Positions 166-55,738 of a stretch of DNA of 64,000 nucleotides are shown in pieces. This DNA comes from an uncultured Bacteroidota bacterium (lineage in GTDB: Bacteria; Bacteroidota; Bacteroidia; Bacteroidales; VadinHA17), in assembly GCA_937864815.1 (NCBI GenBank), contig CALMJY010000173.1:687-64686 (forward strand). Reading direction: 5' to 3'. The translations under genes were made by a program, and so were the position numbers. Numbering within the stretch: position 1 is the first letter of the stretch; every line of letters begins with the position of its first letter. The notes under the pieces are model-generated. The model did no database searches. It saw only the letters and a list, made by a program, of their open reading frames with translations, and was not told the origin of the DNA.

Positions 166-1238
166 ACGTGAGTTCGATATAAAGTTAAAAATATAAACCC
201 TTAGATTGATCGATTATTTCAAGATTAAGAGATGGCTTCTTAGGTAAATAGGAATAAGCGATTAGACCAGATAACAAGTTGATTATAAACCCTTCCTGAC
301 TTCTATGGCGAGTATGTTCTATTTGGCAAATATTTTTAAGTTCATCCAGAACCGACTCAATAAGGGCTCTTTTTCGGAGCAATATTTTGTCTGAAAGGAG
401 CATCAGGGAGTTTTTCATGTTCTTTCTCAGTTTTGTGATCAGATGGATCCCGTCTATGAAGAGCTTCTCAAATAGAGATTGTGATATGTATCCTTTATCT
501 CCAAAGAGCTTTCCATAGATCCTGGCTAATAGGTTAGTACCAAGAAGCGGTTGTCTGTCATCGACATTCCCGGGAGTGAGCATAAAGTCGAGTATCTCTC
601 CTTTGTCGTTGATGACAAAATGCAGTTTAAGCCCGAAGAACCATCCGATGCTGCACTGTCCCTTTGTGGCAAGGCCTTTTAAAACCTTATGTGAGTGAGC
701 CCGCTTAATATGACAAGCCTTAATATGGGAGGAGTCTACATAGGATATTCCAGTGCAATTACCCAGACAGCGTGTTTTAAGAAAAACAGCCATAGGTAAT
801 AAGACCTTTTGCATTAACTCAACAAACCGGTTATATGATACGAGTCCTGGAAAGTCACCATGCATATGTTCACAGACATGAAAAAGATAATAATGTTTGA
901 AGTCTCTGTAACGCATTAAATGAAAATAAATTACAATGGTCATTACCTCACTCTCATTTAAACTGCAAGGCTTGATCCGTTTCCGCGAACCATCTCCAAT
1001 CTGGTGTGTTCGTAACTCGTTGATGAATACATCGTTAAAATCATCAACATTACAAAATATTTCTATAAGTTTGTCTTTTAAATCATTCATGGATTCTTTC
1101 TGTTTTTGTTGGTTGGCACTACAAATTTGGAAAGAATCCTTTTTTATAACTCATTGTAAATCATATAGTTATTAACATAATGATATTAATTTGTTAATAA
1201 CCAGTGATTTATATAATATTGTTATGTCGAACTCACGT
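166..1238 (-). mobile_element. IS982-family insertion sequence (1073 bp)
   Basis: It has perfect 12-bp terminal inverted repeats, ACGTGAGTTCGA (166-177) and TCGAACTCACGT (1227-1238). A 7-bp direct repeat TAATTTA sits at 159-165 and 1239-1245. It contains one transposase ORF. Confidence 0.85.
185..1090 (-). CDS. IS982-family DDE transposase
   Basis: It is 301 aa. The N-terminus ..KLIEIFCNVDDFNDVF.. and the size are typical of IS982 transposases, and it is bounded by the TIRs above. Confidence 0.85.
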   Translation of the reverse strand: MNDLKDKLIEIFCNVDDFNDVFINELRTHQIGDGSRKRIKPCSLNESEVMTIVIYFHLMRYRDFKHYYLFHVCEHMHGDFPGLVSYNRFVELMQKVLLPMAVFLKTRCLGNCTGISYVDSSHIKACHIKRAHSHKVLKGLATKGQCSIGWFFGLKLHFVINDKGEILDFMLTPGNVDDRQPLLGTNLLARIYGKLFGDKGYISQSLFEKLFIDGIHLITKLRKNMKNSLMLLSDKILLRKRALIESVLDELKNICQIEHTRHRSQEGFIINLLSGLIAYSYLPKKPSLNLEIIDQSKGLYF

Positions 1239-2549
1239 TAATTTATAGTCAGGATTGTGGCATAAATTATGTATCCTAATCTCGATGTCATCATTTGAGT
1301 ACAGAAGATATTTTAATGATGATCTTATTTTTTCTATCTTATTGTCATGTACAAAAGAAATATCTGCATAAAACCTTTGCACTCTTTTTTCAGATGAATG
1401 TAGATTCTTATATACAACTCTAGCCTCTTCAATAGATAATGTGTCGATGTGCCTGGTCGAAAGTAGTTTAGAATAAATTTCTTTGGATCGTTTTGCCATA
1501 CGTAGGGTATGATTATATGTTGTTTTATCCCATTTACAGTATTCCAAAAACAGCTTAGGAATTTCCTTTTTCCTTTCATTTAAATTTAGTCTTGGTTTAT
1601 TTTCTTTAAACCAAACCGTCTTAATCCAGTGCCAAAAATGATCTATAGTAAGGTAAATAGGGACTCCTGGGTATTCTCGAGAAGAAATATCTTTTACAAT
1701 TTCTTTTACATCATCAATTTGGCGCCAGAAAATTAGATACTGTTTTGCTTTAGGATTGATTTTCTTCTTTTGTTGTAAGGTTCTATTACCTAGGACTTTC
1801 CTTTGAAAAACCTTTTGTTCTCCTTCAGATTGTTTTAGTCTATGCAACGCTTTTTCATATATGTGTTTATAATTTTCTAGGTCTATTGGTTGAAGGATGT
1901 ATGATTGATTGAATAAATGATTAAAGTGATCAACCATTTCGTCAAGTGTTTGCTGGTCTTCCAATAATACATTAGTTTCTATATTTTTAAAAAGTCCGCC
2001 AGATGTAAAGTTAGATGAACCTATTACACAGTATTTTGGTCTATTATTTCGGTAAAAGAGAATGAATTTTGAATGAAAGGAGTCACCTAGAAAATGAATG
2101 CTAATTCTTGATTTTATTTGAATACTTTTTAAAGAATAGTAATTTGTTGGTGGTCTTAATGAAACTATTAATTGTATGTTTTTCGATTGATCTGCCCAGC
2201 CGGAAATGATGTCTGAATCTGAGTAAAAAGCTGAAGCAATTTTTATAGAATCTGCATCTTCTCCTAATTTGAGCAGCAATTCTCTAAGGTTGTCATGCTC
2301 ATTATTGGTTTGTATCATATTGTAAAGATTATTTAAAAGGTTCTCAAGTGACCGTTAAAGTCCCACCAATTTGGGAAGGTTTTGTCACCCGACTTATATC
2401 TGTGCAAGAGCCTAGTATTTTAGTTTGAAAGCTGTAACGTTACAAGAAGAGTATGGCGCACATGTTGCCGATTTGATAGAGCATAACGACTGTCACTGTA
2501 TAATTTATCTAGGAGTTAGAAATCTGTCAATGCACAGGATTTAATTATT

Positions 2550-2657
2550 GGGCAGATGCGAATGTCCGAGTGCAACAACCATCACAAATTTGTCTTGAGA
2601 GCAGGAGCAAAGGCAAAAACCGTGACGAGCTTATGAATTATACCGTCCGTGTTAGCC
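2550..2657. repeat. Dispersed intergenic repeat, copy A (family with 7735..7822, 28548..28656 and the 3' part of 4480..4756)
   Basis: The core is GGGCAGA..GTCCGAGTGCAA..ACAAATTTGTCTTG..GCAGGAGCAAAGGCAAAAACCGTGACGAGC..CCGTCCGTGTTAGCC. In gene orientation it starts with GGCTAAC 7 nt after the DUF1848 stop codon. Confidence 0.8.
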
Positions 2658-2664
2658 ATAGCTT

Positions 2665-3591
2665 TTATTTAAATCTTAAATTACTTTGGAAGTAATCGTT
2701 TTTGTCTTTTATAATGCAATCCTTTGTGATCTGACCGGTTATCAAAGGCGATAAAGGATCATGTTTCAAAATGTTATTTTTTACAGCGGTTAGACTGTAA
2801 TTTGCATAACAATAGAGGCAATTATGACTGCAGGTGTTATATTCTCCAATATCTGTGCTTTCTATACAGCCACAAGCATTTCTTTGATATTTGTCTTTAC
2901 TTGCTTTTATTTTATAGCCAATAATTCTTTCAATCAAGTCTTGATCGACACAATGGCCATGTTCAAAACCGAAATCCATTAGGTCAATATCTTCAGAGCA
3001 GGTTTCAATTTTTAAGTCATAAAGTCCTGTAGCATTTTTAAACCCATGACTAAGTTCGATTATGTCATGATTATTGGGTACCCTTGCTTCAAGCGTCTTT
3101 ATATTCTTCTCACATTTTTTATATAAATCCAAAAAGCTGATTATGCATTTTTCAGTATAGGGGGATAATATTTCTGCTAAATGGTTGAAGTATTTTATAT
3201 GATATTTAATGTCCATTTTTCTTGTAAGGAAGATCGGATCATATCGCCAAATAACTTTACTTTTCCCGATCTTCTGAGATAATTCAATAAATGTTTTAAT
3301 AATCTGGACTTTTTTAGCAACTCTCAATTCAATTGATGAATCATAAGGATTTAAGGTAAATTGGAAATAATATTTATAGTCTTTTAATTCTTCGAGTCTG
3401 GATATTATATTTTTAGGATTTTTAGTCCAAAACACAATACAGTCTATTTTGTTTGGATTTAGATCTATACGTGAAAGTAGTTTACTGTTAAATGGATTTC
3501 TAACTAATACAAATTGCTCTTTTATTCTATTTAGAAACCAATCAGAATAAAAGGCAGGTATATCGGTTCTCCGGCTGGCGCTGATTATCAT
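2665..3591 (-). CDS. DUF1848-family protein with a C-terminal radical-SAM-like Cys cluster
   Basis: It starts MIISASRRTDIPAFYSDWF, the DUF1848 hallmark as I recall it. The C-terminus reads CGCIESTDIGEYNTCSHNCLYCYA and contains CX3CX2C. The likely start is 3591, overlapping the upstream stop as TAATG; the ORF track extends to 3636. Confidence 0.8.
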   Translation of the reverse strand: MIISASRRTDIPAFYSDWFLNRIKEQFVLVRNPFNSKLLSRIDLNPNKIDCIVFWTKNPKNIISRLEELKDYKYYFQFTLNPYDSSIELRVAKKVQIIKTFIELSQKIGKSKVIWRYDPIFLTRKMDIKYHIKYFNHLAEILSPYTEKCIISFLDLYKKCEKNIKTLEARVPNNHDIIELSHGFKNATGLYDLKIETCSEDIDLMDFGFEHGHCVDQDLIERIIGYKIKASKDKYQRNACGCIESTDIGEYNTCSHNCLYCYANYSLTAVKNNILKHDPLSPLITGQITKDCIIKDKNDYFQSNLRFK

Positions 3592-4454
3592 TATAATTTT
3601 TCTATAATAAGTTGTGCACTTGAACAGAATTGCCAAGGATTGAATTTACTTATTTTAGGATTGACTGTAAAAAGAATATTGTTTTTTGGATGTTGATTGT
3701 GATACCAAAAGTAATTACTTAAGCTATGAGCATAGTGATAGCTATATACGTTGACACTTGGTATTTCTTTAGCCATATTTCCTATATCACCATAGTGTGA
3801 TCTGGGATCAACATCTGATAGACCTCTATTGAAGTCATTTATTATTATATATGAATCTTTTGGTAATCTGTTAAGAATATTCTTTATCAGTAACTTTTTA
3901 AGATTGATTATATTTGAATTTGATCTTAAGAGTTCAGAAATCAAGTAACTGATTATCACAATATTTGGAGAATTGTTTTTGAAGAAGGAATCTGTATTGT
4001 CAAGGAATTCATATACATCTTTATATTTTACCTCAAAAGGATTTGATGTATTACTTTTTATCCAGTCATGAATAGGTCTCCAATCTTTATTTATTTCTAT
4101 TCCACAATATTTTATAGATTTTTTAGGATTCAGCTCTTTCTGTAGAGTATCAATTCCTATAAAATCAGGACATGATCCACATCCTAAGGATAAAATGTTT
4201 AATTCACTTAATCTTTTAAGATTGCTGTATTTGACTAATAAATACCAAATTTCGGACGAATATTTATATGTGTATTTGCAACTGTAGAAATACAAAATAT
4301 TTTGACAGTTATACCCGTTTTCTCTCTTCCCATAATGAATGTTCTCGAGACATTTTTCGCAATCACCAGTTTGTGGACATTGATTCTTACAATCTGAGCA
4401 GATTTTTGTTCTTGAATAATTACTGTTACAGTAATTTAGAAATTCATTTATCAT
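3591..4454 (-). CDS. Class I SAM-dependent methyltransferase-like protein with an N-terminal Cys-rich (Zn-ribbon-like) region
   Basis: It carries CSDCKNQCPQTGDCEKC and then a motif-I-like LNILSLGCGSCPDFIG. It is translationally coupled to the DUF1848 gene. Confidence 0.7.
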   Translation of the reverse strand: MINEFLNYCNSNYSRTKICSDCKNQCPQTGDCEKCLENIHYGKRENGYNCQNILYFYSCKYTYKYSSEIWYLLVKYSNLKRLSELNILSLGCGSCPDFIGIDTLQKELNPKKSIKYCGIEINKDWRPIHDWIKSNTSNPFEVKYKDVYEFLDNTDSFFKNNSPNIVIISYLISELLRSNSNIINLKKLLIKNILNRLPKDSYIIINDFNRGLSDVDPRSHYGDIGNMAKEIPSVNVYSYHYAHSLSNYFWYHNQHPKNNILFTVNPKISKFNPWQFCSSAQLIIEKL

Positions 4455-4479
4455 ATTGGTAGGTTTGTTTCAAGTTATG

Positions 4480-4756
4480 GCTAACGGCCAGCGGGTATGG
4501 GCAGTAAGTGTTACCTGACACAGCCAGCAGGCCACCAGTCCTGGTACTTTAACCGAAAAGTTGTCCCTGTGGCAAGGAAGGTATGGCGCAATTTTTGCAA
4601 ATCCCGGCGATAGATTTAATTGTCTCTTTAGCACGGATCTGTCCAGAGCCGAAATCACAAAGTTTGTAAACGAACGAGATTTATCTATCACTATAAAGTT
4701 GTCTAGGTGTAGTGCAAAAATTGTGACAAACTTATTGCCTATACCCGCTTGTTAGC
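4480..4756. repeat. Long imperfect hairpin element D (attC-like or REP-like)
   Basis: The ends are GCTAAC (4480-4485) and GTTAGC (4751-4756). A 19-bp stem pairs 4490-4508 with 4731-4749 and has two G:T pairs on the + strand. The element lies between the stop of 4784..5263 and the start of 3591..4454. Confidence 0.75.
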
Positions 4757-4783
4757 ACAAGTATATTGTTATCCATGAGATAC

Positions 4784-5263
4784 TTAAAAATTTACGATCC
4801 ATACAGAATAATCATCAAGCAGTTTATAATTTTTGGATCTTTTATTCGTAGACTTCAATTCACTTAGAGGGATTTGGAATCGTTTTTTATCAGTAACTCG
4901 TATTACGTCAACAATTAGTCCATCGTATTCGTCATATCGCTCACCAGTTTTTTCCAGAATAAAAGTATCAAGGTATGATGGATTTGATTTTTTTAGTTTT
5001 TCATACTCTTTTAGACTGCCAGGTCCCAGAAGGTAAAATTCTTCCCAACTGAAGTCCTCAATCCCAGTGAGCTCAATTGGGTAAGATAAATTCTGATCCA
5101 GATATTCTTTATAGATGGTAATAGTATCCAATCTTTTAGATAAGTCTTCAGTTTTATTCTGAAATACTGCTTCTATGCGTTTTTCTTGGTTTTTAAAATT
5201 TTTGTCCATTTTAATTGGGTCATTGTTAAAGTGCTGTAATTGGCTAAAATAGGAAAAAATCAT
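4784..5263 (-). CDS. Hypothetical protein (159 aa, acidic)
   Basis: It is a clean ORF co-oriented with its neighbours. I recognise no motif. Confidence 0.6.
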   Translation of the reverse strand: MIFSYFSQLQHFNNDPIKMDKNFKNQEKRIEAVFQNKTEDLSKRLDTITIYKEYLDQNLSYPIELTGIEDFSWEEFYLLGPGSLKEYEKLKKSNPSYLDTFILEKTGERYDEYDGLIVDVIRVTDKKRFQIPLSELKSTNKRSKNYKLLDDYSVWIVNF

Positions 5264-5272
5264 TTAAGAGTT

Positions 5273-5490
5273 GTTAGCACAAGTATTTGTTTGTCGTGCG
5301 ATGGCAAAGTCCCGGTAAACGGCAGTATAGTTATTTTGTTAACAGAATAAGATATATGGCGGCGGGTAGGCCAATTATCTTTCGTACGAGGGGCATGTCC
5401 AGATAAGGGGCAGAAATTATTTTATTAAAGTAGAACATATTAAAGACGGCGCGAAGGCTAATATTTTGTGTATGAAATATTTGTGCTAAC
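5273..5490. repeat. 16-bp inverted repeat pair enclosing ~186 nt of non-coding DNA
   Basis: GTTAGCACAAGTATTT (5273-5288) pairs with AAATATTTGTGCTAAC (5475-5490), with one G:T on the + strand. The right arm is shared with hairpin 5483..5614. Confidence 0.7.
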
Positions 5491-5614
5491 GTTGAGTGTA
5501 TGTGCCGTAAGGGGTTGCGGAGCAGTTTCCTGTCCACCGATACGAAAGTTTGAGCGGGATACAACGCTTGAATACCCACTAAAACCCTTATGGCATATAC
5601 ACTTTGTTGGGCAC
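5483..5614. repeat. Imperfect hairpin element R5 (attC-like, 132 nt)
   Basis: The ends are GTGCTAAC (5483-5490) and GTTGGGCAC (5606-5614). A 19-bp stem pairs 5495-5513 with 5585-5603 and has two G:T pairs. It is homologous to the stem of element D with compensatory changes. It lies 9 nt from the ABC permease stop codon. Confidence 0.75.
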
Positions 5615-5623
5615 ATGAGGTTT

Positions 5624-6790
5624 TTATGTTAGTTTTAAATGTCTTCGCTTGAAAATTATTCCTCCAATTATGAAATAAAAAATCGTTAAAACAATAATCG
5701 AAATGATTTCGGGAATTATACTCGACACATCCATATTCATTATCAATGTTTTGTTTAGCGCTGAAATGGCGTGTGTCGGGGTCATTAATCCTTGAATATT
5801 AACTGAATAACCTGCTATTGTAAACAAGGCCTCACTTTTTAACGGGAAAGCAGCACCGGTAAAAAACATAAATAAGAACATAGGAAAGTTACCAACAACC
5901 AAAACTTCATTGGATGATTTTGTTATGGCTGCAATTATCAGACTAAAAGAAATAATTGACAAACTGGTTAAGCTGGCGATTAAAATCATAATTACAAATG
6001 AACCTTCATACTTAAAACCAAGCATAATCGCTGTAAGCAAAGTCAATAAAACCGAGATAACCCCAACTAGTAACTGAACAGAACTTATTCCTGCCAAAAA
6101 CTGAAAAACACTCAACTTTGAAAGTTTCAACCGCATAATGGTTTTGTTTTCAACTTCTGATACAAATGCAATACTTGCTGTAAACATTAACATTATTAAT
6201 GATACAATAAGAATACCCGGCACCATCATATCGAAACCACTTGCTGTTGCCGAAGTTCCTAATGCCGTTTCTTTCAGATTGACTATTCTTTTGTTATTAG
6301 TTATTTGCAATGCGTATTCATTTACTATTTCGTTTGCCCAAACGGCACTAATCAAATAATTTGTATTAGACAAATCACCGATAAATTCAACATTAACAAG
6401 CGAAGTACTGTCTGAAAGTTTTCGGTTTAGCAACGATTGAGAAAAAACAGTATCAATAATTATCAAAGCATCGGCTTTTTTGTTTTTCAATCTCTCAATA
6501 CCTTCTGTCCTGTTTGATGCTTCATGTACTGTAAATGGGAAAACAACACTATCTGTTTTGAAATTTTTAAAATATCCTATCAATTCATTACCGTAGTTTA
6601 TAGTTTGTCCCTTAACAAAAGCTCCTTTGTCACTATTGGCAATCAAAACTGTATATTGAGGTTTTGATGTTTCCGTTATCAGAAAATAAACGAAAATAAA
6701 AAATGGCCCCATTGATAATGAAAGCAAAAGTACCCAATAGCTTCTGATTTGCTCTTTCAGACTTTTTAAAATTATGCTAATTGTTTTCAT
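5624..6790 (-). CDS. ABC-2 type transporter permease
   Basis: It is 388 aa with an N-terminal TM segment, a large extracytoplasmic loop and a C-terminal cluster of TM segments. It overlaps the ATPase gene by 4 nt. Confidence 0.8.
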   Translation of the reverse strand: MKTISIILKSLKEQIRSYWVLLLSLSMGPFFIFVYFLITETSKPQYTVLIANSDKGAFVKGQTINYGNELIGYFKNFKTDSVVFPFTVHEASNRTEGIERLKNKKADALIIIDTVFSQSLLNRKLSDSTSLVNVEFIGDLSNTNYLISAVWANEIVNEYALQITNNKRIVNLKETALGTSATASGFDMMVPGILIVSLIMLMFTASIAFVSEVENKTIMRLKLSKLSVFQFLAGISSVQLLVGVISVLLTLLTAIMLGFKYEGSFVIMILIASLTSLSIISFSLIIAAITKSSNEVLVVGNFPMFLFMFFTGAAFPLKSEALFTIAGYSVNIQGLMTPTHAISALNKTLIMNMDVSSIIPEIISIIVLTIFYFIIGGIIFKRRHLKLT

Positions 6791-7716
6791 TGCCTTAAAT
6801 TTCTGCCAGTTAAATGAATGAATACATCTTCGAGTGTATTTTCCCGAAGTTTTATTTCTGCGATTTTTAGTCCGCTTTTTTCAGCAATGTTTTTTATTGC
6901 AGGCAATTGTTCAATGATATTTGAATGTTTGATAAATATAGTATCTTCATTGATTTTGATATTCATATCAAGTAGCTGAATACTATCTGAAAAAATCTTA
7001 GTTGAGTTTTCATTGTTGCTTTCAATTACTAATTCAAGAATATCGCCTTCGCCCACAGTTCGTTTAAGGTTTTGAGGAGTATCTAACAAGAGTAATTTTC
7101 CATGGTCTATAATAGCAACCCTGTCAGATAACCTTTCGGCTTCGTCCATGTTATGTGTTGTAAGAATTACTGTCTTTTGTATGCTGTATGTTTTTATAAA
7201 GTCACGGACCAGAATTCTGCTTTGCGGGTCTAATCCGGCTTCGGGCTCATCTAAAATAAGAATTTCGGGGTCATGAATTAGTGCAAGGCAAATGTTAAGT
7301 CTACGTTTCATTCCCCCAGATAAATTACTTGCTCTTACATGAGTTTTATCAGCCAAACCAAAAAGATTTAGCAATTCAATGGCTCTCATTTTAACTGACT
7401 TTGAAGGCAAACCATACATTTGTCCCATAAATAGCAATTGTTCCAAACAAGTCAATTTTGGGTAGAAGATGTTTTCCTGCGGGCAATAACCAATTATAGA
7501 CTTTTTGTCTTTACCATTGCAATTAGCAAAAGTGATTTCCCCTTCTGTAATTGGCAATAGTCCACAAATCATTAAGATTGTTGTTGTTTTACCTGCTCCA
7601 TTTGGACCCAAAAGTCCAAATATTTTATTTCGGTTAATGTCGAAACTTATCCCATCAACGGCTATAAATTCGTCATATTTTTTTTTAAGTCGTTCTATTT
7701 TAATCAATGTTTCCAT
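6787..7716 (-). CDS. ABC transporter ATP-binding protein
   Basis: It has Walker A GPNGAGKTT, signature LSGGMKRRL and Walker B ILILDEP. Confidence 0.93.
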   Translation of the reverse strand: METLIKIERLKKKYDEFIAVDGISFDINRNKIFGLLGPNGAGKTTTILMICGLLPITEGEITFANCNGKDKKSIIGYCPQENIFYPKLTCLEQLLFMGQMYGLPSKSVKMRAIELLNLFGLADKTHVRASNLSGGMKRRLNICLALIHDPEILILDEPEAGLDPQSRILVRDFIKTYSIQKTVILTTHNMDEAERLSDRVAIIDHGKLLLLDTPQNLKRTVGEGDILELVIESNNENSTKIFSDSIQLLDMNIKINEDTIFIKHSNIIEQLPAIKNIAEKSGLKIAEIKLRENTLEDVFIHLTGRNLRQ

Positions 7717-7734: not shown

Positions 7735-7822
7735 GTGCAACACCCATTATAAATTTGTCTTGTGTGCAGGAGCAAAAGCAAAAAGTGTGACAAGCTTATT
7801 AACCCTACCGTCCGTGTTAGTG
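7735..7822. repeat. Dispersed intergenic repeat, copy B
   Basis: The core is GTGCAACACCCATTATAAATTTGTCTTGTGTGCAGGAGCAAAAGCAAAAAGTGTGACAAGCTTATT..CCGTCCGTGTTAGTG. It ends ~18 nt from the ABC ATPase start codon. Confidence 0.8.
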
Positions 7823-8020
7823 TTAATGATTCTATTTTTTTCTTGGTTTGAAGTCTTGTTAATTTGTTAACAGTCACCGTATTGTCTATTTGCAAGCTCT
7901 TTAAAAAGCTTTGGTTGTGCATCAGCCTATGAGGCTTTTAAATGTGCATGCAAATAGTAGATTTCTTTTAGTTTGGAAAGGTCTCGCTATGGGAAATCCT
8001 CTCATTGTCAGAAATAAATT

Positions 8021-29610: not shown

Positions 29611-29998
29611 TTTCTTTTGTATTGATTATAATCAATATATGCCAATGATTGTGCCATTCTTGTTATGTAATAGTATGTCAGATAAATACATGGCGATTCT
29701 GATTTTTTATTGATTTGAAATATCTTCGTAAACGAATATAGAATACCCGGAACCGGGCATTTTTAAATAAAAAAGCAGAGAATCGAGCCAGAAGATTCTC
29801 ATTCTAAATAGACTCCCGTATTATGATATTTATGTTCTTCAGAAAACATGGTTTTCGTTTCTTTCCTACTGGTAACTAAAAATTGACCTTTTAATCCTGC
29901 CTGACCAGGAAATCTGCTAATCAACTTTTGGCAAGTATGCTTTTCAGATGCATAAAGTGGTAATGGTCTGATAACAGCCATTTAAATATTTCCTATAA

Positions 29999-30290
29999 AC
30001 GCGTTGTGCGGTTGACAATTAAATAAAAGAGTCTGTAATTGGTCGATAACTATGTTAAAAACTCAAATAAATAATCTAATCTTCTCATATTCTTGCAATT
30101 ACCCCCCTTCCCGGCCTTCCCCCTGCGCCTTCGCGTAGCCGCTTCGGCGGAGCAAGGCAGGGGGGAAGGAGTACTGCATTTCCCCCTGGGGGAAAATGAA
30201 AGGGGGTTTATTTCGAAAAAATACAAAATATGTAACTAAAAGGTTATTGAGCACTAAATGAATATATTAAGATTCAACCGCACAACACGT
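29999..30290. mobile_element. MITE-like non-autonomous element, full copy (292 bp)
   Basis: It has 17-bp TIRs, ACGCGTTGTGCGGTTGA (29999-30015) and TCAACCGCACAACACGT (30274-30290), with 1 mismatch. A 9-bp direct repeat TTCCTATAA sits at 29990-29998 and 30291-30299. There is no ORF. It has an internal GC-rich hairpin at 30115-30169. Confidence 0.85.
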
Positions 30291-30799
30291 TTCCTATAAG
30301 TATTATTATAAATAATATCCTTATACGAAAATCCGGTATCTATTTCTGCTACATAAATCAAACTCCGACAAATGATTTTTTAATCAGTTAACTGGAATCA
30401 TTCCGAATCTATGGTAATAGTTTCATGGTCATTTCCTGAGAGTTTCCTCACAAACTTACTTTACCTCCTATTATGAGCCATATTGGTTTCATTTAACTTT
30501 GGATTGTCTGTTATAACAACTTTTTAATACGGACCTCTAGTTCTAAAGGATTGAAGGGCTTGGTTATATAGTCATCTGCCCCCAGCTTAAGCAAATCAGA
30601 TCTGCAAATACTGCTGTCTAAGCTCGAAAGGATAATGATTGGTATTCTGCCATATTGTTTACTTGCCTTGAATTGTGTTACCAGAACTCTGCCATCAGTA
30701 TCCGGCATCACCAGATCAGTAATAATCACATCAGGGAAAAAACCATCACTTACCTTTCTCATTGCCTGAGCAACGCTCTGAGCTATAACTATTTCAAAG

Positions 30800-32226
30800 C
30801 ACTAGTGTCCGACTAAAATAATAAAAAGAGGGGTACTCCCCAAAGGTTTCCCCCAATGTTGTAATTTGGTTTTACCACAAACTAAACACAACATGGGTAA
30901 AATTACAGAAATAAAATTAGTCGGACAGCCGATCTTCAAACAGATAATGAATTTGGTTGATAAAGTTGACATACAGGGATTGATAAGGAAGCATGAGAGT
31001 GATTATTATTACAAGTCATTCAAAACCCGTACACACCTTTTCACAATGCTGTTCGGGATACTGAGCCGGTGCGATTCGATGACAGAAGTCTGCGAAGGGC
31101 TTCGTGCAATGGGCGGCAAGCTTAATCATCTGGGTATGGACCAGGCACCAGCTAAGAGTACAGCATGCGACGGACTGCGTAACAGAAGCCATAAGTTCTT
31201 TGAGGATCTATATTTTACCCTGGTAAAACATTATCATAGTTTTTTGTCGGACAGCCGGACATTTGGACTGACTTTTAAGGAGGTACTTATTATTGATTCC
31301 ACGACAATCCGGTTATTCAGTGACATATTAAAAGGAGTTGGCCGTAATCCAAAGGGTGACGGCAAGAAAAAAGGAGGAATGAAGGTCCATATGCTTATTG
31401 ATGCAGTTCAATCGGTTGGACGGTTTATCAAAATGACGGCAGCAAAGGTCAATGATCAGAAGTTTTTAAAGAGTCTTGAGTTGATATCCGACAGCATGAT
31501 CGTGTTTGATAAAGCCTATAACTATTACCACCAGTTTGCACTTTGGACACAGAAGCGTGTATATTTTGTCACCCGGATGAAAAAGAATGCTGTCTATACG
31601 ATTATAGAGGTTAAAAGAGAACATTATCGCAAGAGAGGCAAGGCAAAAGTATTAAGAGATGAGATCATCGAGCTGGAGTATCATCCAGAGAAAGAAGACG
31701 GAAAACAAGATCTTAAAACCAAGCTCACAATGAGATTAAGAAAGGTCAGCTATCAGGATGAGCAGAACCGCTACTACGATTTTCTTACAAACAATTTTGA
31801 TATATCAGCAGAAGATGTCGCATTCCTGTATAAGAAAAGATGGGGCATTGAGATACTGTTCAAGAAAATGAAGCAGAACTTTCAGCTGCATTACTTCTAT
31901 GGTGAGAATGAAAATGCAATCTATACCCAGGTCTGGTGTACTTTAATAGCCCAATTGCTATTGACTGTGACACAGAAGATCGCACAGGCGAAAAAAGCTT
32001 TCTCTGTAGTGGCATCGTTGGTTCGGATACACCTGATAAGCATGCTGGATGTAAATGAACTTTTGCGCAGCACAAAAAGAGCTTTTAAGAGTAAATCGAT
32101 ACCCCCTGGGTTACAATTATCCTTTAATTTGCAGGAGGTCAGTTTTTAAATACAAAATATGATACTTGATAATCAGATACATACGAGAATGAATCAAGTA
32201 TCTAAATTATTAATCGGATAACAGTG
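30800..32226 (+). mobile_element. IS4-family insertion sequence (1427 bp)
   Basis: A 9-bp TSD ATTTCAAAG sits at 30791-30799 and 32227-32235. The terminal inverted repeats are imperfect: CACTAGTGTCCGACTAA.. and ..TTAATCGGATAACAGTG. Confidence 0.88.
30893..32149 (+). CDS. IS4-family DDE transposase
   Basis: It starts MGKITEIKLVGQPIFKQIMNLVD..SFKTRTHLFTMLFGILSRCDSMTEVCEGL.. as in IS4-type transposases with an N-terminal DUF4372-like region. The ORF track starts at a TTG (30866); the ATG at 30893 is more plausible. Confidence 0.85.
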   Translation: MGKITEIKLVGQPIFKQIMNLVDKVDIQGLIRKHESDYYYKSFKTRTHLFTMLFGILSRCDSMTEVCEGLRAMGGKLNHLGMDQAPAKSTACDGLRNRSHKFFEDLYFTLVKHYHSFLSDSRTFGLTFKEVLIIDSTTIRLFSDILKGVGRNPKGDGKKKGGMKVHMLIDAVQSVGRFIKMTAAKVNDQKFLKSLELISDSMIVFDKAYNYYHQFALWTQKRVYFVTRMKKNAVYTIIEVKREHYRKRGKAKVLRDEIIELEYHPEKEDGKQDLKTKLTMRLRKVSYQDEQNRYYDFLTNNFDISAEDVAFLYKKRWGIEILFKKMKQNFQLHYFYGENENAIYTQVWCTLIAQLLLTVTQKIAQAKKAFSVVASLVRIHLISMLDVNELLRSTKRAFKSKSIPPGLQLSFNLQEVSF

Positions 32227-54486: not shown

Positions 54487-55099
54487 TGCAAATCGTCAGC
54501 CAAATGTTTACCAGTAATATCATAAATTTAAGGTGTGGTTTTTAACATTAACCACACAATAAAATGGAAGAAAACAACCAGAAAAAGAGTGCTACACAAA
54601 TCGTAAAAGAGATTAAAAGGCGGACCCGCCGTAAATTTACAGCTGAAGAAAAAATCAAGATCGTACTTGAAGGCATGCGAGGCGAAGACACCATCGCTGC
54701 TATATGCCGTAAATATGCTATCCATCAGAATAACTACTTCAAGTGGAGTAAAGAGTTCATCGAAGCAGGGAAGCGAAGGCTAAGCGGCGATACCCTTCGT
54801 GAAGCCACCCGGGATGAAGTGGCAGATCTTCGCAGGATGAACGATCTGCTTAAGCGTGAGCTCGGCGAAATGTACATTGAAAACAAGGAGCTAAAAAAAA
54901 CCTTGACTGGCTTAGAGTCCGAAGAATTATAAAACTTAAGAAGTATATGAGACTAAGCCAGGATGAAAAGATCGAGATTATTAATCTTGTAGATAACTCT
55001 GATCTGAGCGCCAGCCGTACTTTAAAGGAATTAGGCATTCATAAGAAAACCTTCTATAACTGGTACAAGCGGTATCTTGATGAGGGTATTGACGGCCTT
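54487..55099 (+). mobile_element. IS3-family element, left end only (IRL + orfA + 5' ~50 codons of orfB)
   Basis: It starts TGCAAATCGTCAGCCAAATGTTTACCAGTAA. The orfB fragment MRLSQDEKIEIINLVDNSDLSASRTLKELGIHKKTFYNWYKRYLDEGIDGL ends at ~55099. Confidence 0.8.
54564..54932 (+). CDS. IS3-family transposase OrfA (HTH)
   Basis: It is 122 aa with ..FTAEEKIKIVLEGMRGEDTIAAICRKYAIHQNNYFKWSKEFIEAGKRRL.. and a leucine-zipper-like tail. Confidence 0.8.
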   Translation: MEENNQKKSATQIVKEIKRRTRRKFTAEEKIKIVLEGMRGEDTIAAICRKYAIHQNNYFKWSKEFIEAGKRRLSGDTLREATRDEVADLRRMNDLLKRELGEMYIENKELKKTLTGLESEEL

Positions 55100-55738
55100 T
55101 GGCTTTTGTTGCCAGGCCGTCAAAGCCCCCCTCAAGATACCTTCGGTACCAGTTGTAGAATGTGCGTTTGTGTATTCCCAGTTCCTGTAAAGTCCTGTTA
55201 GCGCTTAGATCAGACCCATCCACCAGACGGATGATCTCATATTTTTCCTCTTGAGTGAACCGCATATACTTCTTGTTTTTTACGATTCTTCTGACTCTAA
55301 GCCAGTCAAGGTTTTTTTTAACTCCTTGTTGTCTATGTATAACTCGCCAAGTTCACGCTTCAGGAGATCATTCATTCTTCGAAGCTCTGTTACTTCATCC
55401 CTGGTTGCTTCACGAAGCGTGTCGCCGCTTAATCTGCGCTTGCCAGCTTCGATAAACTCCTTGCTCCATTTGAAGTAATTGTTAGTGTGAATGGCATATT
55501 TCCGGCAGATTGCTGCGATGGTATCTTCACCACGCATACCTTCAAGAACGATCTTAATCTTTTCCTCAGCAGTGAAAGTTCGACGGGTCCGTCTTTTGAT
55601 CTCTTTTACGACTTGTTCTGCACTCTGTTTTTTGCTCTTTTCTTCCATTTTTAAGTGTGGTTTAGTGGTAAACATTAATTTAAAAACCACACCTTAAATT
55701 TATATCTTTACTGGTAAACATTTGGCTGACGATTTACA
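55100..55738 (-). mobile_element. Second, ~80%-identical IS3-family left end in inverted orientation
   Basis: In its own sense the outer end reads TGTAAATCGTCAGCCAAATGTTTACCAGTAA. The orfB fragment MRFTQEEKYEIIRLVDGSDLSANRTLQELGIHKRTFYNWYRRYLEGGFDGLATKAKG stops at the junction. Confidence 0.8.
55280..55648 (-). CDS. IS3-family transposase OrfA (second copy)
   Basis: It starts MEEKSKKQSAEQVVKEIKRRTRRTFTAEEKIKIVLEGMRGEDTIAAICRKYAIH... The start is taken at Met15 of the tracked ORF. Confidence 0.8.
   Translation of the reverse strand: MEEKSKKQSAEQVVKEIKRRTRRTFTAEEKIKIVLEGMRGEDTIAAICRKYAIHTNNYFKWSKEFIEAGKRRLSGDTLREATRDEVTELRRMNDLLKRELGELYIDNKELKKTLTGLESEES

Follow-up and report, generated by a model that had tools for sequence, protein, structure and literature searches.

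Two long hairpins, D and R5, lie between co-oriented genes near one end of a contig from an uncultured Bacteroidota bacterium, and they raise the question of whether this DNA carries mobile gene cassettes bounded by recombination sites or a different kind of repeat or structured RNA. The window analysed here is the whole 64,000-nucleotide stretch of that contig; its G+C content falls from about 40% to 30–35% below about position 8000. The first-pass annotation had proposed attC-like sites that delimit cassettes, a proposal supported by stem covariation, strand bias, gene context, complementarity between boxes and the contexts in which one cassette recurs. In our reading, D and R5 are very probably attC-type recombination sites, each closing one promoter-poor cassette of an integron-like array. 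The two hairpins belong to a large integron-like system of Bacteroidota that is apparently undescribed: a full-text literature search, with most subscription journals beyond its reach, returned no description of it.

Anatomy and folding of hairpins D and R5

4479..4758 (280 nt), minus strand: hairpin D, the D-type attC-like site of cassette U, recognised by box, stem, fold and about 20 near-identical copies elsewhere
5483..5614 (132 nt), minus strand: hairpin R5, the attC-like site of the ABC cassette, recognised by box, stem, junction and a relative in locus L071

On the plus strand, D opens with GCTAAC (4480–4485) and closes with GTTAGC (4751–4756). Beside these boxes lie unpaired spacers of unequal length—GGCC (4486–4489) against T (4750)—followed by arms of 20 nt each (4490–4509 and 4730–4749) that are 90% complementary. 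The ends of R5 on the same strand read GTGCTAAC (5483–5490) and GTTGGGCAC (5606–5614), its spacers are GTTG and TT, and its 19-bp stem joins 5495–5513 to 5585–5603. In gene orientation, D runs from the 5' box GTGCTAAC (4758–4751) through spacer A and the stem (4749–4730 paired with 4509–4490) with a conserved branched interior to the spacer GGCC and the 3' box G|TTAGCC (4485–4479); R5 runs from the 5' box GTGCCCAAC (5614–5606) through spacer AA, the stem (5603–5585 with 5513–5495) and spacer CAAC to the 3' box G|TTAGCAC (5490–5483). A look-alike of R5 in L071 measures 127 nt and has an identical 5' box. The stems of D and R5 are homologous, lie three compensatory double changes apart and share two G:T pairs (plus strand) at equivalent positions.

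Both hairpins sit close to the genes around them: the R5 box GTGCCCAAC begins 9 nt downstream of the stop of an ABC permease, the D box GTGCTAAC 25 nt downstream of the stop of 4784..5263, and the GTTAGCC of D ends 24 nt ahead of the ATG at 4454. Everything that the first-pass annotation had stated about ends, spacers, stems, compensatory changes and G:T pairs holds on rechecking, as do its distances (boxes 9–25 nt after stops; GTTAGCC 24 nt before the ATG). Its extent for D, 4480–4756 (277 nt), describes a real hairpin and needs widening to 4479–4758 for the full boxes.

A scanner for AAC...GTT hairpins scored D at 17 and R5 at 16; its threshold is 11, a value reached by 0–2 hits in five composition-preserving shuffles of the 64-kb window. 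Folded as single-stranded DNA, D yields −53.2 kcal/mol on the plus strand (z −5.5) and −42.6 on the minus strand (z −3.3), so that the plus strand folds better by about 10 kcal/mol; folded as RNA, the z-scores are −4.4 and −2.6, respectively. The strand opposite to the genes is therefore the better-folding one, as had been claimed. R5 gave folding z-scores of −3.0 and −2.7. A search of the window for the 14-mer GTTAGCACAAGTAT found just three local copies above chance. A tRNA/tmRNA scan returned none, Rfam 15 at gathering thresholds had zero matches over the whole window, and permissive thresholds over 4300–5800 gave chance-level matches only (E about 3 or more). We also considered a coding origin of the plus-strand conservation, given a stop codon inside GTTAG and the presence of short reading frames; stops interrupt these frames, none of which is long, and the stem covariation described below accounts for the conservation.

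Cassette U and the array at the contig end

4485..5489 (1005 nt; first bases TT at 5489, last base G at 4485), minus strand: cassette U, a mobile unit made of module M, the 141/159-aa gene and D
5273..5490 (218 nt), minus strand: module M, the conserved 5' part of cassette U, with a 16-bp terminal inverted repeat GTTAGCACAAATATTT / AAATACTTGTGCTAAC
4784..5263, minus strand: the cassette U gene, with a weak CcbP-like calcium-binding match (Pfam)

The cassette between R5 and D recurs in at least eight other contigs, with different upstream hairpins and different downstream DNA, and the homology always opens at C-GTTAGCAC (window 5491). It stands behind different hairpins in L071, L063 and L072–L084. 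The match between L071 and the window begins only at C-GTTAGCAC and is 100% from there on; in that locus, cassette U is the second cassette of a platform with a recombinase and an attI-like site. Eleven contigs (L072–L074, L076–L078 and L080–L084) align from 5491 on with 86–88% identity, the cassette lying behind at least five upstream sites and ahead of at least four downstream sequences. Assembly breakpoints mark the same unit: a 1009-bp contig from three samples corresponds to window 5491..4483, and in three other assemblies contigs are interrupted at 5491 and 4483, at ...GGCCGTT, with neighbouring contigs that end or start one k-mer inside cassette U. When metagenomes were scanned with the opening 35 nt of cassette U as query, the scan yielded a single, though decisive, locus. 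The first-pass annotation had suggested comparing variants for cassette-sized indels; in the contexts compared here, the breakpoint falls at the 3'-box GTT. The cassette junction at R5 maps to 5491/5490, and the alignments would confine the crossover to the tetranucleotide CGTT, consistent with G|TT and a cassette running from TT to G. The same cassette body carries a D-type hairpin in the window and E-type hairpins elsewhere, which a G|TT crossover alone does not predict.

Homologues of module M, 69–77% identical, open other cassettes, and the module is possibly a promoter. The gene that follows had been given as 159 aa. It probably encodes 141 aa from a start at 5209; its 440 homologues are nearly all 141 aa long, mostly on short contigs and with varied neighbours.

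The other parts of the array are as follows.

7821..7955, minus strand: what is left of the 3' end of a preceding cassette, sharing 86.7% identity over 135 nt with the DNA immediately ahead of an E-type element in L050
7735..7820, minus strand: E2, a cut-off E-type long site comprising the first 86 nt (5' box CACTAAC and 5' arm) and ending after GTTGCAC
5624..7716, minus strand: ABC-2 exporter, cassette cargo (Pfam ABC_tran and ABC2_membrane_3), with the ATPase at 6787–7716 and the permease at 5624–6790
2665..4454, minus strand: methyltransferase-like gene (3591–4454) and DUF1848 gene (2665–3636), cassette cargo (PADLOC C3a159 methyltransferase and RTasDUF1848; Pfam DUF1848)
2352..2659, minus strand: E1long, a chimeric long site homologous to D over its whole length
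1233..2318, minus strand: PLD-family nuclease (DrmC/NgoFVII-like), cassette cargo (Pfam PLDc_2 and RE_NgoFVII; PADLOC DrmC)
1144..1226, minus strand: probable short AT-rich attC-like site of the PLD cassette, 83 nt (z −3.1 on the plus and −2.4 on the minus strand)
185..1090, minus strand: IS982-family transposase gene (NCBIfam transpos_IS982, 256 bits; cut-off 130)

The order is a truncated site, the ABC exporter, R5, the 141-aa gene, D, the methyltransferase and DUF1848 genes, a chimeric dead site, the PLD nuclease, a short site and IS982. The 5' part of the array is absent, and core genes (a hybrid histidine kinase) begin at 8021. The first-pass annotation had overlooked three more members of the family, at 7735–7820, 2352–2659 and, probably, 1144–1226. 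E2 shares 85% identity with 2570–2655 and 88–93% with the 5' portions of complete E-type elements in L049, L054 and L034; it has no fold and is non-functional as a hairpin, and its truncation could be explained by a deletion between GCAC microhomologies. The methyltransferase–DUF1848 cassette starts at TTAGCCAT (4484), and its opening bases GTTAGCCAT are reverse-complementary, without mismatch, to ATGGCTAAC at 2659–2651, the 5' box of E1long; likewise, the cassette start GTTAGCAC pairs with the D box GTGCTAAC. The name 'methyltransferase' rests on a PADLOC model, the gene's sole match, and Pfam finds nothing in it. E1long retains this intact 5' box and an E-type 5' arm, combined with a 3' arm of a different type and a degenerate 3' box, CTTTAACGG. 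It folds no better than shuffles (z −0.2) and is a dead, chimeric site; a like mismatch of arms is present in L063 and L034. The 86-nt repeats at 2570–2655 and 7735–7820 have no fold (z > 0). Taken alone, this would speak against hairpin sites, but full-length relatives show that one is truncated and the other chimeric. The 1144–1226 site has a 5' box CATAAC 7 nt past the stop and a 3' box GTTATAA, and comparison with other loci gave it no support. IS982 sits directly downstream of this last site.

By the definition of a CALIN—at least two attC-like sites with no integrase nearby—the window holds R5 and D intact, 1144–1226 as a probable site and two defective ones. The absence of intI noted in the first-pass annotation extends to tyrosine recombinases as a whole, none of which phmmer found in the window or in the 758 nt by which the contig exceeds it, and 'CALIN-like', as had been proposed, is therefore a fitting term. 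The array is decaying: E2 is truncated, E1long is chimeric and IS982 has inserted. Of the cassettes in the window, only the one flanked by R5 and D, the two intact sites, is demonstrably mobile. The low-G+C end of the contig is explained as a decaying array in which a single cassette can still move.

The wider hairpin family and the associated recombinase

To place D and R5 in a broader context, the pattern CTAACAN{4,5}GGTANNNNNNATAAGNNNGTCAC, derived from the 5' arm, was run on GTDB species genomes. It returned 57 loci, most of them in Bacteroidales MAGs, against an estimated chance expectation of about 2; some elements are carried by Ignavibacteria and Chlorobi, and site families recur over many species and apparently over phyla. 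All copies begin with ...CTAAC and finish with ...CC-GTTAG, the similarity being lost right after GTT, and each of the roughly 20 near-identical D-type copies in other genomes diverges immediately past this trinucleotide. The median length is about 290 nt, with D-type and E-type members at 270–400 nt and short members at 90–130 nt. The interior of the long sites, some 200 nt, is conserved in sequence across genomes; short members lack it. This length and high sequence conservation of the D-type and E-type elements are unusual for attC and would suit a selfish repeat or an RNA gene.

Across all 42 aligned members AAC and GTT never vary, and the preceding T/A pair is kept in 35, while the strict R/Y consensus of RYYYAAC/GTTRRRY is not always kept at the outer positions. 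Among 42 distinct arm pairs, 79.7% of cells are paired, against 61.3±0.9% with shuffled partners and 27–37% in slid registers; double changes occur at 18 of the 20 stem pairs (204 cells, against 70±7 in shuffles). With the orientation of each element set from the spacer asymmetry alone, stem mismatches on the gene strand are A:C in 136 cases and G:T in 30, the former being G:T on the opposite strand. One stem position is non-Watson–Crick in 36 of the 42 sequences, and 2–3 such positions are conserved, reading A:C on the top and G.T on the bottom strand. The stems of D, R5 and most members are free of extrahelical bases for 12–20 bp from the spacer, in which they are unlike canonical attC sites; in E-type members a single base bulges out further than 12 bp along the stem.

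The gene context is equally regular: a co-oriented ORF ends within 400 nt upstream of 47 of 59 elements (median 40 nt), an opposite-strand ORF in 7. We further asked whether the 7 nt that follow the GTT of each site are reverse-complementary to the 7 nt preceding the AAC of the next. At least five of seven positions matched in 16 of 32 adjacent pairs, ten of these at all seven, against 6.4% among random pairs and 9.5% when the two boxes of one site were compared. In this family, as in the window, the 5' box of an element is the reverse complement of the opening bases of its own cassette, as expected if cassettes circularise. A chain of complementary boxes starting at an attI-like junction can be traced in L065 and L068 and is untraceable in L067; module M misleads such tracing.

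Tyrosine recombinase genes in these loci lie only directly upstream of arrays and in the same direction (L021, L029, L065, L067, L068, L070 and L071), an association that rests on seven loci, most of the 57 being too short to tell. The recombinase gene is followed by attI-like junctions of the form ...TATAAAyrA|GTTAGG, and the bases beyond them agree with the 5' box of the first site in the array (L065, L068, L029, L021 and L071). A complete platform—recombinase, attI-like site and first cassette—is present in these related loci and not in the window. The enzyme has 390–520 aa, with one or two additional N-terminal modules of β-β-α-β-β-α-β topology, and the catalytic residues R, K, H, R, H and Y are conserved without exception across 37 homologues. 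The best 120 of 6647 matches (E ≤ 1e-20) are close, full-length relatives with 54–81% identity over nearly the whole length. Its catalytic part most resembles archaeal XerA (PDB 4a8e, E 2.5e-41; NCBIfam XerA_Arch, 215 bits), and a Foldseek search with the full model recovered relatives of the catalytic domain only (XerA, IntI4 and lambda Int). The scores against integron-integrase models fall below the cut-offs (TIGR02249, 188 against a curated 265; PRK15417, 135 against 435). Residues ~197–254 of IntI1 have no counterpart in the array recombinase; VchIntIA (2a3v) and TIGR02249 each match it in two separate stretches, and an AlphaFold model has no additional helix at the position of the IntI insert. 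The protein is an IntI/XerA-like recombinase without the IntI-specific insert (I2 helix), and is the likely catalyst of cassette exchange.

On this basis, we propose that in single-stranded DNA the strand opposite to the genes, the plus strand of the window, would fold into a long imperfect hairpin in vivo. The end boxes ...CTAAC and GTTAG... would pair together; beside them would come an asymmetric unpaired spacer (1–3 against 4–5 nt) and then a stem of 12–20 bp with G.T wobbles at fixed positions. A tyrosine recombinase, probably the IntI/XerA-like enzyme whose gene heads arrays in related genomes, would cut within the GTT of the 3' box, at a point inside C-G-T-T, and exchange strands with another site or with the attI-like site by its own gene. 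The cassette, running from TT to G, would leave as a circle in which the 5' box faces its own first bases, and could re-insert elsewhere. For cassette U, excision would be expected to leave the junction ...CTCAACG|TTAGCCAT... (also written ...ACACTCAACG|TTAGCCATAAC...), and the circle to carry ...GCTGGCCG|TTAGCACAAAT... (also written ...CCCGCTGGCCG|TTAGCACAAATATT...).

The same sites could instead be ordinary attC sites served by a canonical IntI, with its I2 insert, encoded elsewhere, the recombinase of about 500 aa being a bystander or having another role such as integration of the whole island. The CTAAC/GTTAG boxes and the AAAyrA|GTTAGG junction are indeed the same as in class 1 integrons (attI1 and the aadA1 attC), and the short members have canonical attC size; Ignavibacteria and Chlorobi, moreover, have been reported with complete integrons (10.1101/2022.02.28.482270). 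However, a phmmer search with IntI1 of all ORFs of 64 loci and the window matched only the I2-less family and no IntI with the insert, and it is this family that occupies the place expected of the integrase, upstream of the attI-like junction, in seven independent loci. The stems, too, lack the extrahelical bases contacted by the I2 region, and insert-based surveys report Bacteroidetes as nearly free of IntI and almost without integrons (10.1101/2022.02.28.482270; 10.1101/2024.07.02.601686). We judge a canonical integrase acting from elsewhere unlikely.

A structured cis-antisense or small RNA transcribed from the plus strand would explain the conservation and the G.U pairs, which lie on that strand, as RNA function, and both the better plus-strand fold of D as RNA and the conserved, branched interior would suit it. 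Such an RNA matches no Rfam family, the interior is missing from the short members, and the GTT cassette junctions, the box complementarity along arrays and the link to recombinase and attI would be left unexplained; we consider it very improbable, and conceivable alongside attC-type sites rather than in their place. The weakest candidate, already raised in the first-pass annotation, is that of MITE- or REP-like selfish palindromes whose terminal repeats covary since both ends bind one transposase; despite the conservation of D-type and E-type sequence in many genomes and apparently several phyla, the long terminal inverted repeats and the IS elements nearby, it is scarcely tenable, as the recurring unit is a gene plus hairpin bounded at the GTT of successive hairpins and not a hairpin alone, the 5' box corresponds to the opening bases of the cassette it belongs to and to no target-site duplication, orientation to genes and placement right past stop codons are strict, a strand-specific wobble bias at fixed positions is unexpected for double-stranded transposase sites, and no cognate transposase is associated.

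Returning to attC-type sites of an integron-like system, acquisition of the I2 helix is regarded as the step that turned an Xer-like recombinase into one that recombines folded single-stranded attC sites (PMC4792948, PMC7790495), the insert being considered in the literature a requirement for attC recombination, and IntI is defined by this insert (10.1101/2022.02.06.479319). In dozens of Bacteroidales and other MAGs, the loci described here have arrays that bear all the genetic hallmarks of integron cassettes and are headed by an insert-less recombinase. We lean slightly towards a distinct and widespread class of integron-like platform, centred on Bacteroidota with copies in other anaerobe phyla, whose integrase never acquired or has lost I2 and carries N-terminal modules, and whose sites lack extrahelical bases, are often 300 nt long and are conserved in sequence. 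Such a class would represent a second, independent solution to single-stranded hairpin recombination, and a large reservoir of mobile defence cassettes overlooked by current integron finders. If the link to the recombinase is causal, the system offers a natural second example for testing the requirements of hairpin recombination, points to a large body of mobile defence and accessory genes, so far overlooked, in Bacteroidota of anaerobic sediments, digesters and gut-related habitats, and gives a reason why such regions shatter metagenome assemblies.

Comparison with known systems

Several features are shared with integrons. The end boxes read YTAAC and GTTRR with AAC and GTT invariant; the site is an imperfect hairpin with an asymmetric unpaired spacer, whose structure is kept while the stem sequence varies; the strand opposite to the gene folds better, as known here from folding and wobble counts; and the site directly follows a co-oriented, usually promoter-less ORF. 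Each cassette extends from TT to G and has a 5' box that complements its own start, and an attI-like junction lies beside the recombinase gene. Typical attC sites measure 57–141 nt, and the default ceiling of IntegronFinder is 200; R5 (132 nt) falls inside this range, whereas D (280 nt) and most relatives, many of them 270–400 nt with about 200 nt of sequence-conserved interior, fall outside it. Conserved G.T (A:C) positions take the place of extrahelical bases near the base of the stem, and the recombinase differs in lacking the IntI insert, in its N-terminal modules and in reading in the direction of the cassettes. The cargo, as in integrons, is rich in defence and toxin–antitoxin genes (compare 10.1101/2024.07.02.601686).

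With sedentary integrons of the Vibrio cholerae type, the arrays share site families that are alike within an array, and large sets of defence and toxin–antitoxin genes. Sequence-conserved attC sites are known from sedentary chromosomal integrons, e.g., the Vibrio cholerae repeats, and an integrase co-oriented with its cassettes from Treponema denticola, where, as here, the gene reads in the cassette direction. Both of these have a canonical IntI with I2 and attC sites of about 60–130 nt with extrahelical bases; in the system described here, by contrast, the same site families recur over species and apparently phyla. The catalytic part of the recombinase is nearest to archaeal XerA, and Xer enzymes (archaeal XerA, bacterial XerC/D) likewise have no I2 insert; they differ in acting on double-stranded sites of about 28 bp (11-6-11) rather than long hairpins, and in having no N-terminal modules. 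Acinetobacter pdif modules are flanked by inverted dif-like sites, an anatomy unlike the present one. With MITEs and REP elements, finally, the hairpins share the character of repeated palindromic intergenic DNA of 100–400 nt; here, however, gene and hairpin move together without target-site duplications, in strict orientation and position, within arrays headed by a tyrosine recombinase.

Paired hairpins and the layout of the array

Re-reading of the stretch from 4480 to 5614 bore out everything that the first-pass annotation had described there in the way of boxes, spacers, stems, G:T pairs and stop-codon distances for the two attC-like hairpins D (4479-4758) and R5 (5483-5614). D is bounded by the boxes GCTAAC (4480-4485) and GTTAGC (4751-4756), with unpaired spacers of GGCC versus T and arms of 20 nt each (4490-4509 and 4730-4749) that are 90% complementary; R5 carries the boxes GTGCTAAC (5483-5490) and GTTGGGCAC (5606-5614), spacers of GTTG versus TT and a 19-bp stem. 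The two stems are homologous, differ by three compensatory double substitutions and share two positions at which the + strand has G:T pairs. This part of the window has genes only on the - strand; read in their direction, one element opens 9 nt and the other 25 nt past a stop codon. Folded as ssDNA, D reached -53.2 kcal/mol (z -5.5) on the + strand versus -42.6 kcal/mol (z -3.3) on the - strand, so that the better-folding strand is indeed antisense to the genes, as had been proposed; the folding z-scores of R5 were -3.0 and -2.7. Rfam and tRNA scans gave no match.

The window is also represented, on the opposite strand, by the 73-kb JGI contig Ga0212089_10000042. For a housekeeping gene, the top matches that bear a name belong to Bacteroidota. 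The G+C content of the window is 30-35% from 1 to ~7950 and rises to ~40% in the genes for chemotaxis and histidine kinases that lie further on; the low-G+C stretch holds accessory genes: an ABC-2 exporter, a small CcbP-like gene, a methyltransferase-like gene with DUF1848, a PLD nuclease and an IS982 transposase. The initial ~40 nt of an 86-nt repeat (2570-2655 and 7735-7820, 85% identity) are common to it and the 5' arm of D, and the interval 2352-2659 (E1long) is homologous to D over its entire length, yet does not fold. A short AT-rich hairpin with the ends CATAAC and GTTATAA lies 3' of the PLD gene, at 1144-1226. From these elements, the following layout emerges, where D-type and E-type denote two sequence subfamilies of long sites.

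Layout of the array in the window, in gene orientation
7955-7821, - strand: remnant of an upstream cassette
7735-7820, - strand: E2, an E-type site ending abruptly after GTTGCAC
ABC cassette, with R5 as closing site
5489-4485, - strand: cassette U, with D as closing site
MTase/DUF1848 cassette, with the chimeric, non-folding E1long as closing site
1144-1226, - strand: probable short site of the PLD cassette
After the PLD cassette: IS982, the last item

A phmmer search with IntI1 over all ORFs found no recombinase gene in the window, which, together with the presence of several sites, supports the CALIN-like array suggested initially—partly decayed, with one cassette still bounded by two intact sites. 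Given the 5' box of R5 (ATGTGCCCAAC), the ABC cassette is predicted to have started with GTTGGGCACAT, in which case the E2 junction would be accounted for by a deletion from one GCAC microhomology to another. In chimeric long sites, the 5' arm is of one type and the 3' arm of another, and the two are unable to pair; such sites were observed at window positions 2352-2659 and in three of the contigs compared with the window (L063, L034 and L019). Their probable origin is homologous recombination of neighboring sites within the conserved interiors—an event that would remove cassettes and inactivate the site.

Several further features were recorded. The IS982-family transposase gene (185-1090) adjoins the last site, and a 202-aa protein encoded beyond the window start (L001, 15291-15899) matches only positions 1-191 of the 719 in PADLOC PDC-S46, so that a defence gene seems to have been cut short where the array ends. 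Elsewhere, a 549-nt inverted repeat (54550-55098 and 55114-55662; 78% complementary, arms 15 nt apart) holds one ORF per arm (54564..54932 on the + strand and 55280..55690 on the - strand), indicating convergent, diverged paralogues. A 26-nt inverted repeat (29997-30022 and 30267-30292; 85% complementary, arms 244 nt apart), located ~0.6 kb upstream of an IS4-like transposase gene (30866-32149; DDE_Tnp_1 and DUF4372), may be a MITE or an IS end.

A structured family of cassette boundaries

A search of one-genome-per-species GTDB contigs with the shared 5' arm as the pattern matched 57 stretches, against ~2 expected by chance according to our own estimate. The majority derived from Bacteroidales MAGs; others came from Ignavibacteria, from contigs binned as Clostridia, Thermotogae, Leptospirales and Saccharibacteria, and from a 245-kb betaproteobacterial contig (L036). 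E-type or D-type sites were seen on contigs assigned to other phyla in L036, L050, L017, L023, L057 and L061; the length and high G+C of L036 indicate that part, at least, of this cross-phylum occurrence reflects real transfer rather than mis-binning. Both subfamilies measure 270-400 nt, and all copies start with ...CTAAC, end with ...CC-GTTAG and lose all similarity immediately past GTT; short, R5-like members of 90-130 nt also exist. A scanner for AAC...GTT hairpins returned 91 elements in 366 kb of loci versus 20 in shuffled sequence. The long sites share a conserved interior of ~200 nt with GGGACAnnTTT-like repeats; these motifs, found at 4510-4730 in the window, are present in many copies within the 50 nt that precede the 5' box as well, and may serve as docking sites for the N-terminal modules of the candidate recombinase described below.

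Structural conservation was assessed on 42 distinct arm pairs (alignment A3), with pairs counted on the D structure. Standard pairs filled 79.7% of the cells, as compared to 61.3±0.9% after shuffling and 27-37% in a slid register; changes on both sides affected 18 of the 20 stem pairs and 204 cells (shuffled, 70±7). With orientation assigned from spacer asymmetry alone (1-3 nt after AAC, 4-5 nt before GTT), the stem mismatches on the gene strand comprised 136 A:C and 30 G:T, placing the wobble pairs on the opposite strand. One stem position was non-Watson-Crick in 36 of the 42 sequences, which points to selection and not decay. Judged by these alignments, the conserved quantity in the family is structure.

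The elements also behave as boundaries, supporting the cassette-delimiting role first suggested for D and R5. A co-oriented ORF lies upstream of 47 of 59 elements (median gap, 40 nt). When the seven bases after the GTT of one element were compared with the reverse complement of the seven before the AAC of the next, at least five matched in 16 of 32 adjacent pairs, and all seven in ten of them; five or more matched in 6.4% of random pairs, and in 9.5% when an element's own two boxes were compared. Such complementarity along arrays is expected of circularising cassettes that span TT to G. Examples from the window are the end of R5 (GTTAGCAC) versus the start of D (GTGCTAAC) and the end of D (GTTAGCCAT) versus the start of the following element (ATGGCTAAC).

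Mobility of cassette U

The comparison of metagenomes for cassette-sized variation, advised in the first-pass annotation, revealed breaks at 5491 and 4483 and varied contexts. In ENA ERZ27245621 (k141_ contigs), one contig stops at 5351 and the next begins at 4623; a 1009-bp contig corresponding to 5491..4483 was found in three samples, and a JGI contig of another sample stops at 5369. De Bruijn assembly (with k assumed to be 123 for the JGI assembly) would be expected to break in this way if 5491..4483 has more than one context. Direct proof of cassette U in a second context is provided by L071, where only the last 99 nt match the window (100%, from C-GTTAGCAC on), the upstream DNA holding another gene and another hairpin, of 127 nt. 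The gene at 4784-5263, previously taken to encode 159 aa, probably starts at ATG 5209 and encodes 141 aa, as do nearly all of its 440 homologues, which cover 89% of the 159-aa query and lie mostly on short contigs. Two proteins 92-94% identical to it occur on contigs with many different neighbors; in eleven contigs carrying these relatives, homology begins exactly at 5491. The hairpins upstream of this point are of five or more kinds, and no fewer than four different sequences come after the GTT of the cassette itself.

The conserved 5' part of the cassette, module M (5273-5490, 218 nt), has a 16-bp terminal inverted repeat (GTTAGCACAAATATTT and AAATACTTGTGCTAAC) and an end that resembles, by sequence, a Bacteroidetes promoter (TTTG-19 nt-TACTTGTG). 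Its last 25 nt recur directly before D (4749-4773), giving the cassette two 5'-box-like sequences, and homologues with 69-77% identity open other cassettes (L065, 16735-16952; L062; L035). We further observed that the cassette body (module M, the 141-aa gene and ACTTGTGCTAAC) is followed by a D-type hairpin in the window (region compared, 4714-4758) and by an E-type one in L063, L076, L080, L082 and L083, implying exchange at or near the 5' box; a G/TT crossover alone is an insufficient explanation for this swap.

Candidate recombinase and comparison with integrons

An IntI-type recombinase, which the first-pass annotation had advised seeking in the flanks, is absent from the window, but a tyrosine recombinase heads related arrays: when every ORF in the window and the loci was searched by phmmer with an IntI1 sequence, only two proteins were identified (L021 and L029), both encoded directly upstream of arrays and co-oriented with them. 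These proteins of ~500 aa consist of ~225 N-terminal residues without a Pfam match, followed by Phage_int_SAM_4 and Phage_integrase. The closest solved structure is archaeal XerA (4a8e, E 2.5e-41), with VchIntIA second, and NCBIfam scores fell below the cut-offs for both XerA_Arch (215 versus 220) and integron integrase (188 versus 265). Two-stretch matches and alignment revealed no counterpart of the IntI-specific insert, and the AlphaFold model (pLDDT 74) displays two N-terminal beta-beta-alpha-beta-beta-alpha-beta modules and no extra helix in the catalytic domain. The catalytic residues are invariant across 37 homologues. A wider search yielded 6647 proteins at E <= 1e-20, a count in which tyrosine recombinases of other kinds are probably included; among the 120 best matches, almost every one is a full-length relative (54-81% identity).

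The recombinase gene also occurs on the contigs of L011, L018 and L046, and every long contig examined shows core genes, then the recombinase gene, then co-oriented cassettes—many of them for defence (Pycsar, MmeI-like restriction-modification, TIR, KAP and nSTAND NTPases, HEPN/MNT). The DNA that separates the recombinase gene from the first cassette contains a semi-conserved, attI-like junction, ...TATAAAyrA/GTTAGG; in L065, L068, L029, L021 and L071, the bases after this junction agree with the first element's 5' box. In L071, a 387-aa family member heads the platform, with the window's cassette as the second. In L070 (11520-11790), ~270 nt of GGCTTCAGGC-type tandem repeats were observed directly downstream of the recombinase gene, at the place of the attI-like region in other loci.

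Two defining features set this system apart from integrons: the recombinase lacks the IntI-specific domain, and the sites lack extrahelical bases near the stem base. In the VchIntIA-attC structure, the insert contacts such bases, and the two absences therefore fit each other. Many of the sites are also 2-3 times as long as a typical attC. The I2 helix, the IntI-specific insert, is regarded as the key innovation for single-strand recombination (PMC7790495, PMC4792948), and integrons are reported to be almost absent from Bacteroidetes (10.1101/2022.02.28.482270); no description of this integron-like system was found in the literature full text, the coverage of which was incomplete. Features shared with integrons are the end boxes, the attI-like junction, cassettes that run TT to G, a better fold opposite the genes and promoter-poor, co-oriented ORFs. 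The attC-like reading of D and R5 is supported, and strict integron membership fails on the insert and the extrahelical bases; the most fitting description of D, R5 and their relatives is as an integron variant.
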